The notes below the pieces were generated by a model. It was not told the origin of the DNA, made no database searches, and saw only the letters and a list, made by a program, of their open reading frames with translations. Below, one piece after another: positions 41,920-43,826 of a stretch of 64,000 nucleotides of DNA (its first letter is position 1; the number at the start of each line of letters is the position of its first letter). The position numbers and the translations under genes are program-made. The stretch comes from Escherichia coli. GTDB taxonomy: Bacteria > Pseudomonadota > Gammaproteobacteria > Enterobacterales > Enterobacteriaceae. Location of the stretch: the NCBI RefSeq assembly GCF_024502345.1, contig NZ_JALDNN010000002.1; one strand, written 5' to 3'.

Positions 41920-42302
41920 TAACTGAGTATTTTTGAATAGCGACGCTGGATGCCGATTGGTCTGAACGGCCCGGCGATCGCCGGGCATACCATTGGCGCC
42001 GGCATCGTGCTGGTAACGACCATATTAGGGCGTTTGAGCAGTTGCCTGGCCTCACGCAGGGAGACTGGATTAACTGACCGCTGACAAAATGCCTGACAAT
42101 GACAGTCCGTTTTGTGCCAGATATAGTCATTCACACCCTGAGAGTTACACTTTTAAGTGATTCAGGGTATGCGCTTATTGGTTACGAATATTGTGCCAGA
42201 ATCATGTGATTCGATGATTGCCGCTTTGCTTTCGAGCCAGTAAGTGCTCCACGTTCGCTAACGAATACTCAGGGCATGCAGAAAAACGGTAATGACTCCA
42301 AC

Positions 42303-42806
42303 TTATTGATAGTGTTTTATGTTCAGATAATGCCCGATGACTTTGTCATGCAGCTCCACCGATTTTGAGAACGACAGCGACTTCCGTCCCAGCCGTGCCA
42401 GGTGCTGCCTCAGATTCAGGTTATGCCGCTCAATTCGCTGCGTATATCGCTTGCTGATTACGTGCAGCTTTCCCTTCAGGCGGGATTCATACAGCGGCCA
42501 GCCATCCGTCATCCATATCACCACGTCAAAGGGTGACAGCAGGCTCATAAGACGCCCCAGCGTCGCCATAGTGCGTTCACCGAATACGTGCGCAACAACC
42601 GTCTTCCGGAGCCTGTCATACGCGTAAAACAGCCAGCGCTGGCGCGATTTAGCCCCGACGTATCCCCACTGTTCGTCCATTTCCGCGCAGACGATGACGT
42701 CACTGCCCGGCTGTATGCGCGAGGTTACCGACTGCGGCCTGAGTTTTTTAAATGGCGGAAAATCGTGTTGAGGCCAACGCCCATAATGCGGGCGGTTGCC
42801 CGGCAT
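42303..42806 (-). CDS. insB: IS1 InsB
   Basis: 167-aa ORF. Confidence 0.9.
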
Positions 42807-43000
42807 CCAACGCCATTCATGGCCATATCAATGATTTTCTGGTGCGTACCGGGTTGAGAAGCGGTGTAAGTGAACTGCAGTTGCCATGTTTTACGGCAGT
42901 GAGAGCAGAGATAGCGCTGATGTCCGGCGGTGCTTTTGCCGTTACGCACCACCCCGTCAGTAGCTGAACAGGAGGGACAGCTGATAGAAACAGAAGCCAC
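42725..43000 (-). CDS. insA: IS1 InsA
   Basis: 91-aa [25 protein letters not shown]... Confidence 0.95.
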
Positions 43001-43073
43001 TGGAGCACCTCAAAAACACCATCATACACTAAATCAGTAAGTTGGCAGCATCACCCCCGGTAATGACTCCAAC

Positions 43074-43577
43074 TTATTGATAGTGTTTTATGTTCAGATA
43101 ATGCCCGATGACTTTGTCATGCAGCTCCACCGATTTTGAGAACGACAGCGACTTCCGTCCCAGCCGTGCCAGGTGCTGCCTCAGATTCAGGTTATGCCGC
43201 TCAATTCGCTGCGTATATCGCTTGCTGATTACGTGCAGCTTTCCCTTCAGGCGGGATTCATACAGCGGCCAGCCATCCGTCATCCATATCACCACGTCAA
43301 AGGGTGACAGCAGGCTCATAAGACGCCCCAGCGTCGCCATAGTGCGTTCACCGAATACGTGCGCAACAACCGTCTTCCGGAGCCTGTCATACGCGTAAAA
43401 CAGCCAGCGCTGGCGCGATTTAGCCCCGACGTATCCCCACTGTTCGTCCATTTCCGCGCAGACGATGACGTCACTGCCCGGCTGTATGCGCGAGGTTACC
43501 GACTGCGGCCTGAGTTTTTTAAATGGCGGAAAATCGTGTTGAGGCCAACGCCCATAATGCGGGCGGTTGCCCGGCAT
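43074..43577 (-). CDS. insB: IS1 InsB
   Basis: 167-aa ORF identical to copy c in the track. Confidence 0.9.
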
Positions 43578-43771
43578 CCAACGCCATTCATGGCCATATC
43601 AATGATTTTCTGGTGCGTACCGGGTTGAGAAGCGGTGTAAGTGAACTGCAGTTGCCATGTTTTACGGCAGTGAGAGCAGAGATAGCGCTGATGTCCGGCA
43701 GTGCTTTTGCCGTTACGCACCACCCCGTCAGTAGCTGAACAGGAGGGACAGCTGATAGAAACAGAAGCCAC
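43496..43771 (-). CDS. insA: IS1 InsA
   Basis: 91-aa ORF identical to copy c. Confidence 0.95.
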
Positions 43772-43826
43772 TGGAGCACCTCAAAAACACCATCATACAC
43801 TAAATCAGTAAGTTGGCAGCATCACC

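Follow-up and report, generated by a model that had tools for sequence, protein, structure and literature searches.

The stretch analysed here, referred to as the window, comprises 64,000 nucleotides of Escherichia coli DNA (NCBI RefSeq assembly GCF_024502345.1, contig NZ_JALDNN010000002.1). Next to a sucrose-utilisation (scr) cluster it carries two complete copies of the insertion sequence (IS) IS1, termed IS1a and IS1b, which follow each other in direct orientation with only three base pairs, CCC, between the left terminal inverted repeat (IRL) of IS1a and the right terminal inverted repeat (IRR) of IS1b. Such an abutted IS1 pair is a genuine, rare structure. The pair in the window is very probably real, and very probably it was built from two different donor copies. 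The chances are about even that it formed recently, head-to-tail, via the transposition chemistry of IS1 and with the loss of 2,063 bp. The original prediction had described two full, direct and nearly identical IS1 copies with CCC between them; this description was borne out in every detail.

Both copies possess an exact IRL (GGTGATGCTGCCAACTTACTGAT) and an exact IRR (GGTAATGACTCCAACTTATTGAT), i.e., imperfect inverted repeats of ~23 bp. The sole difference between them is a G at position 42929 in IS1a and an A at the equivalent position 43700 in IS1b, which corresponds to 99.87% identity over 768 bp. This difference is synonymous, the InsA translations being equal. In each copy the insA frame covers positions 1-81 and the insB frame positions 76-199 of the NCBIfam profile NF033558 ('IS1 family transposase'), and each copy has the A6C -1 frameshift motif (GTTTTTT / AAAAAAC) which is the route to the InsAB' transposase. 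Both IS1a and IS1b look functional. A degenerate pattern of end, spacer and end matched once in the window and in none of 100 shuffles, and a 768-bp repeat of 99.87% identity is far beyond chance. Target-site duplications of 8-9 bp are absent around IS1a, around IS1b and around the pair as a whole; the successive flanks read CAGAAAAAC, CCC and GCCAGTTGG. Deletion events are bound to leave such a picture, and it is no argument against the identity of the elements as IS1.

The history of the locus is recorded in related plasmids. The E. coli plasmids NZ_CP081714.1 (L001) and NZ_MT162143.1 (L002) are 100% identical to the window from position 38001, the start of the compared stretch, through IS1a and CCC, so that the match is complete for IS1a, for 4.3 kb on its left side and for 3 bp on its right side. 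In the longer NZ_CP081714.1 record the 100% identity reaches back to window position 33949. The annotation of L001 gives the equivalent of IS1a as an IS1B family transposase. In these relatives a single IS1 is followed by CCC and directly thereafter by CGTCTT (the CCC is at L001 6057-6059). Because collinearity with L001 and L002 runs through window position 43058, CCC is the ancestral flank of the IS1a IRL. Beyond their IS1 both relatives have ~2 kb with a hypothetical gene, a umuC remnant and a DsbA-family gene, then an intact ISKpn26 (L001 7906-9101), then a further hypothetical gene and mobI. The window rejoins the relatives at L001 8123, 217 bp inside ISKpn26. Thus, the deletion in the window comprises L001 6060-8122, 2,063 bp, and IS1b sits exactly at that place.

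The third relative, NZ_AP018397.1 (L003), has one IS1 which is fused (L003 6057) to DNA 1,670 bp further on, with L001 6057-7726 absent. Here an adjacent deletion of the classical type, with a single IS1, started from the same IRL end. Taken together with the deletion in the window it follows that the IRL end of IS1a was rearranged at least twice in this lineage. The resident IS1 lacks a target duplication even in the seemingly ancestral plasmids, as is evident when CAGAAAAAC (window 42279-42287) is set against CCCCGTCTT (L001 6057-6065). All records examined must therefore postdate an earlier IS1-associated rearrangement.

The 9-mer GCCAGTTGG, which abuts the IRL of IS1b, recurs in the E. coli plasmid NZ_CP086387.1 (L014, 1355-2131). 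There, an IS1 in opposite orientation occupies the same position of an IS5-family element and has GCCAGTTGG on both sides. Thus GCCAGTTGG is a genuine IS1 target, which was used there independently and duplicated cleanly over 9 bp. The reverse complement of GCCAGTTGG, CCAACTGGC, has CCAACT in common with the terminal repeats of IS1. According to old reports, hot spots of IS1 insertion resemble the ends of IS1, and the case of GCCAGTTGG may relate to this.

The A isoform of IS1b is also present in NZ_CP081714.1, in a copy at 99228-99995 which differs by the same single base from the IS1a equivalent of that plasmid. IS1a equals the IS1 of the relatives and the distinguishing base of IS1b is the other natural isoform; thus IS1a and IS1b very probably come from different donors, and the isoform difference argues against a simple self-duplication of IS1a.

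How rare are such pairs? BLAST queries of 321 bp and 1,451 bp across the junction were uninformative because the ends of any single IS1 were merged into one place. Therefore, an 83-bp junction query was chosen; at this length, the ends of one IS1 copy lie too far from each other to be joined as one match. In 72,556 PLSDB plasmids and 5,426 complete E. coli genomes it found no full single-piece match, and exact 50-bp searches for the junction of IS1b with ISKpn26 detected no such junction in the same two collections, but they led to the use of GCCAGTTGG in NZ_CP086387.1. A degenerate scan for IRL-N(0-30)-IRR gave 0 matches in 100,044 species-representative (GTDB) genomes, as did N(31-61). The N(0-30) scan returned three metagenome cases with spacers of 6 (L007), 8 (L008) and 9 bp (L009) and two viral-contig cases with spacers of 8 (L011) and 29 bp (L012), all of them head-to-tail. 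In L011 the 8-bp spacer AATTCGTT recurs beyond the second copy; hence the spacer is a whole target duplication and the second copy an ordinary insertion. The two copies in L012, 29 bp apart, are likewise ordinary insertions, each with its own duplication of 8-9 bp. L012, a 14-kb contig of a viral collection (IMGVR_UViG_2874915312_000003), has three ~90%-identical copies of an IS1 variant, at 7901-9465 and 12135-12902, which suggests repeated insertion in this region. Literature phrase searches for abutted IS1 tandems retrieved no reports; the matches concerned IS10 or IS1 copies which flank genes.

The sole single-piece match to the 83-bp query, from PLSDB, is pNDM-1-KP424 from Klebsiella pneumoniae (NZ_CP109986.1, L006 6494-12575), in which an IS1 and an IS1 variant (92% identical) are separated by CG. 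For this pair the precursor is documented. In pEC4-NDM-6 (NZ_KC887916.1, L013 8500-21000) the same two IS1 copies lie 9,071 bp apart in direct orientation, and the variant lies within a perfect duplication of 9 bp, TAAATACCG. The left flank, as well as the junction to the right of the variant, recurs in dozens of further plasmids. L006 equals L013 minus exactly 1035-10105, i.e., from the resident IRL to 2 nt outside the IRR of the variant. The CG spacer represents the last 2 nt of the TAAATACCG duplication, and the own flank of the resident copy, AGCGAG, is lost. The 9,071 bp removed contained an EAL-domain gene, an IS26, an inverted IS1 and two capsule genes. Because the precursor is known, the pair in pNDM-1-KP424 arose as the facing ends of pre-existing copies were joined and not by adjacent insertion. 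It resembles the pair in the window in that a natural abutted IS1 pair lies beside an IS5-family element and the DNA between the copies was precisely lost. It differs in the spacer of 2 bp, which derives from the IRR-side flank and thus points to the opposite attacking end, in the lower identity of the copies (~92%) and in the length of the deletion.

For the window we propose, by analogy, that the facing ends of two direct IS1 copies may have been joined by transposase, much as in the formation of IS30 and IS911 dimers, a proposal which we believe and doubt in equal measure. The ancestor would have had the order scr, IS1a, CCCCGTC…, the ~2 kb with the hypothetical gene, the umuC remnant and the DsbA-family gene, and an intact ISKpn26. 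An IS1b of the A isoform would have entered GCCAGTTGG of ISKpn26 by simple insertion, oriented as IS1a, with a Tn9-like composite as the presumed intermediate. Transposase would presumably have paired the IRL of IS1a with the IRR of IS1b, which face each other, and the 3'-OH at the IRR tip of IS1b would have become linked to the same strand at a point 3 nt beyond the IS1a IRL. Host replication and repair would then have produced a plasmid which lacks the interstitial DNA and has the ends abutted across CCC. The logic would be that of circle-junction formation, or of the 'site-specific dimerisation' of IS30 and IS911, carried out on two separate copies.

As read from the sequence, the strand polarity is consistent with these steps: a 3'-OH of the IRR tip on the minus strand, joined to the 5' side of CCC/GGG, would give the observed sequence. 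Two independent deletions, those in the window and in pNDM-1-KP424, end 2-3 nt from the tip of the partner IS1, which would be very unlikely if the endpoints were random. The spacer derives from the IRL flank in the window and from the IRR flank in the Klebsiella plasmid; accordingly, either end of IS1 would be able to attack. Attack by either end is known for IS911 and IS30. IS1 has circular transposition intermediates with joined ends and, on account of its circles, is now listed among the copy-out-paste-in elements (bioRxiv 10.1101/2023.06.07.543989, PMC9333248), whose circle junctions come about through this same reaction.

Several points weigh against this proposal. Neither PLSDB nor the 5,426 complete E. 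coli genomes yielded the expected intermediate, in which the 2 kb would still exist and an IS1 within ISKpn26 would have GCCAGTTGG on either side. The circle junctions of IS1 described by Sekine in 1997 and Shiga in 1999 are said to have spacers of 6-9 bp, not of 2-3 bp. Just two cases with 2-3-bp spacers are known, and the pair in the window is known from assembled sequence alone. Finally, its anatomy is equally compatible with the reverse order of events, an insertion beside IS1a followed by an adjacent deletion.

This reverse order is the strongest competitor, in our estimate unlikely yet deserving attention. IS1b would first have inserted 3 bp outside the IRL of IS1a, into a 9-bp target (ATCACCCCC) which overlaps the tip of IS1a by 6 bp, and a classical adjacent deletion, by intramolecular transposition from the IRL end of IS1b, would then have extended into GCCAGTTGG of ISKpn26. 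That IS1 does insert against a resident IS1 is evident from L011 with its spacer AATTCGTT, and spacers of 8 and 9 bp are present in L008 and L009. An adjacent deletion from an IS1 end occurred in the very same lineage, in NZ_AP018397.1. Adjacent deletions are typical of IS1 and Tn9 and leave no direct repeats (PMC9330008), and insertion targeted to inverted repeats is documented for IS30 and IS911 (PMC9333248). However, we found no natural example in which the target overlaps the tip of a resident IS1; L011 keeps its full 8-bp duplication. Further, the sole traceable case with a 2-3-bp spacer (L006 with its precursor L013) arose otherwise, since there the second copy pre-existed at a distance of 9 kb and had a duplication of its own.

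An insertion and deletion in a single step is improbable. In this case the ends of IS1b would have been joined to L001 6059/6060 and 8122/8123, 2 kb apart, and IS1b would have replaced the DNA between them. Indeed, IS1b lacks a duplication and occupies exactly the place of the missing 2,063 bp. In a study of three evolved E. coli populations, about 17% of all scored IS movements consisted of a new copy amid a deletion without target duplication. All of these were events of IS150, not of IS1 (PMC11708052). Moreover, a single step leaves unexplained why the left endpoint is 3 bp from an IS1 tip, and it does not account for L006, where both copies pre-existed.

That an assembly artefact simulates the pair and only a single IS1 exists in reality is very improbable. 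The original prediction had named this as the outcome which would refute it. Mis-assembly of tandem repeats does occur, and the junction occurs in none of the 72,556 PLSDB plasmids and 5,426 complete E. coli genomes. Yet one IS1 with a deletion would have lost the ancestral CCC, which an artefact would have to recreate. In addition, the copies differ by a base known as a natural isoform, the 9-mer at the right junction is proven to serve as an IS1 target, and a similar abutted pair is known from NZ_CP109986.1, an independent record. Least probable of all is a self-dimerisation of IS1a between sister plasmids in the manner of IS30 or IS911, after which an adjacent deletion occurred and the second copy was altered by a point mutation or by gene conversion: CCC as the flank of the IS1a IRL is what an attack by the IRR of a sister copy 3 nt outside would leave, but three events are needed and the differing base is a pre-existing natural isoform, which is improbable for a new mutation. 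The absence of relatives in which two identical copies, IS1a-CCC-IS1a, precede CCCCGTC… also speaks against a self-dimerisation.

Joining of facing ends, as proposed above, places the IS1 pair next to the tandem dimers of other families. Reactive tandem dimers are documented for IS21, IS30, IS2, IS3, IS150, IS1470, IS911, IS256 and IS1655, not for IS1 (PMC9333248, PMC9330008). The copies which give rise to such dimers may be separate and even far apart, in which case the intervening DNA is lost (PMC9333248). Like the pair in the window, the (IS30)2, (IS21)2 and IS911 dimers consist of complete head-to-tail copies, with IRL and IRR abutted across a few base pairs derived from a flank. (IS)2 tandems such as those of IS21 and IS30 have a junction promoter, Pjunc, which is the feature that drives their instability (PMC9330008). 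In such tandems one end supplies the -35 element and the other the -10 element of a strong promoter for transposase expression. In the window, a consensus scan identified no promoter across the junction of IS1a and IS1b, only the native CTGCCA-16-TATGAT inside each IRL, and the idea of a junction promoter was rejected on this ground. The junction in the window was persistent enough to be the assembled consensus. The sole and indirect hint at a junction more reactive or less stable than a single copy is its rarity, given its absence from PLSDB, the complete E. coli genomes and the GTDB representatives.

Circles of IS1 are the closest relatives with respect to the element, having the same type of IRL-IRR junction with short flanking DNA. 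Turlan and Chandler in 1995, Sekine and colleagues in 1997 and Shiga and colleagues in 1999 reportedly observed excised circles of a single IS or a transposon under overproduction of transposase. In the window, by comparison, what corresponds to the circle is the entire plasmid less 2 kb, and the spacer measures 3 bp (2 bp in L006), set against the 6-9 bp said to be found in circles. By analogy with IS1 circle junctions, which according to the 1999 work of Shiga reportedly serve as a transposition substrate, the abutted ends in the window may be one as well. Classical IS1 adjacent deletions, products of intramolecular replicative transposition known from IS1 and Tn9, share with the window the loss of end-adjacent DNA and the lack of target duplications (PMC9330008). 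They differ in that one IS1 is fused to a new flank, whereas the window has two copies and an endpoint 3 bp from the other tip.

The location beside scr requires comment. Window 33949-43058 is NZ_CP081714.1 at 100%, and there the five scr genes are annotated in the same order. The stop codon of scrR, the gene of the LacI-type regulator, is 368 bp from IS1a, and the IS1 pair lies downstream. The scr cluster is a neighbour of the pair and not part of it. The scr-side junction of CAGAAAAAC with IS1 is 100% conserved in 3/3 aligned relatives. The deletion in the window removed the DsbA-family gene, the hypothetical gene, the umuC remnant and one ISKpn26 end, and left the sucrose genes untouched.

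The original prediction had called IS1 tandem dimers known to be highly recombinogenic and had taken the pair for a likely hotspot for deletion or amplification of the adjacent sucrose operon. The general premise finds no support in the literature consulted: IS1 is not among the elements listed with reactive dimers (PMC9333248), hence it is an extrapolation from other families. As to the hotspot, deletions at an IS1 end did occur at this locus (2,063 bp in the window and 1,670 bp in NZ_AP018397.1), yet every rearrangement seen in the lineage is on the side which faces away from scr. Amplification of scr would require a direct repeat beyond scr, and the nearest IS1-like sequence there, a divergent copy of 91% identity at 12568-13331, has the opposite orientation to the pair. 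An IS1 end fragment of 201 bp (90.5% identity) is at 16807-17007. Homologous recombination of 768-bp repeats 3 bp apart would be expected to collapse them readily to one IS1, and expansion is possible as well. RecA-mediated collapse to a single IS1 is the likeliest fate of the pair. Recombination between the abutted copies merely collapses the pair and does not amplify scr. Nothing shows that the pair endangers the adjacent sucrose genes.

The wider surroundings are a mosaic (Table 1). By terminal repeats and open reading frames (ORFs) of 240 amino acids (aa), three IS26 copies are recognised at 3331-4150, 33949-34768 and 52420-53239. The second and the third, which is inverted relative to the second, enclose the scr genes together with the IS1 pair; therefore an IS26-mediated inversion or capture of the 18-kb segment is possible. 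Copies and end fragments of IS5-family (IS5/ISKpn26-like) elements are at 875-890, 1191-2386, 28453-29646, 33009-33024 and 47190-48385. Among them are an orphan left end at 875, followed at a distance of 316 bp by a complete copy, and a second complete copy, 96% identical to ISKpn26, at a distance of 2.4 kb from the truncated ISKpn26. The backbone is a mosaic of F type with an N-terminally truncated Tn3-family transposase, umuC, the partition genes sopA/sopB, an IS4-family transposase and a group II intron reverse transcriptase. Neither flank of the IS1 pair is covered to 80% or more by any plasmid in PLSDB.

Table 1. Position and properties of the IS1 pair and of neighbouring features in the window.
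Feature	Position	Strand	Remarks
scr sucrose-utilisation cluster (kinase, porin, phosphotransferase system IIBC, sucrose-6-phosphate hydrolase, LacI-type regulator)	~35356..41919	+	100% identity to annotated NZ_CP081714.1 genes
IS1a, complete 768-bp IS1, IS1B-type	42288..43055	-	IRR 42288-42310, IRL 43033-43055
insB frame of IS1a, 167-aa ORF	42303..42806	-	A6C motif 42743-42749 (GTTTTTT on + strand)
insA of IS1a, 91 aa, intact	42725..43000	-	ORF; matches to NF033558 and NF050000
Spacer CCC, 3 bp	43056..43058		First three ancestral bases outside IS1a IRL
IS1b, complete 768-bp IS1, orientation as IS1a	43059..43826	-	IRR 43059-43081, IRL 43804-43826
insB frame of IS1b, 167 aa	43074..43577	-	A6C motif 43514-43520
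insA of IS1b, 91 aa, protein identical to InsA of IS1a	43496..43771	-	ORF; NCBIfam match
GCCAGTTGG, 9 bp abutting IS1b IRL	43827..43835		IS1 target 9-mer inside ISKpn26/IS5
ISKpn26 (IS5 family), cut by IS1b	43827..44805	-	First 217 bp gone, including one terminal repeat and the transposase C-terminus; other repeat 44790-44805
Backbone features named in the text, jointly	49528-52218, 53167-54471, 56185-58331, 60562-61680, 61755-63113

For the plasmid of the window the consequence is modest and the components are ordinary. The wider interest lies with IS1 itself: it ranks among the most frequent insertion sequences of enterobacterial chromosomes and plasmids, and its transposition pathways are only partly defined. 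The window and the Klebsiella case are a hint that IS1 shares the dimer-forming end-joining of the copy-out-paste-in families, with a bridge of 2-3 nt. As a general statement we tentatively suggest, with more doubt than conviction, that in nature IS1 transposase may pair the facing IRL and IRR of separate direct copies, connect one tip to a point 2-3 nt beyond the other, precisely delete the DNA between them and leave a junction of the (IS1)2 type. Such an activity is documented for IS30, IS21 and the IS3 family, not for IS1, and the length of the bridge is not that reported for IS1 circles (6-9 bp). If true, the abundant IS1 would have a hitherto unrecognised way of pruning resistance and virulence plasmids. 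Any direct pair of IS1 copies would then be a site of precise, RecA-independent deletion which leaves a tell-tale abutted pair, a mark that would be useful in reconstructing the histories of plasmids.

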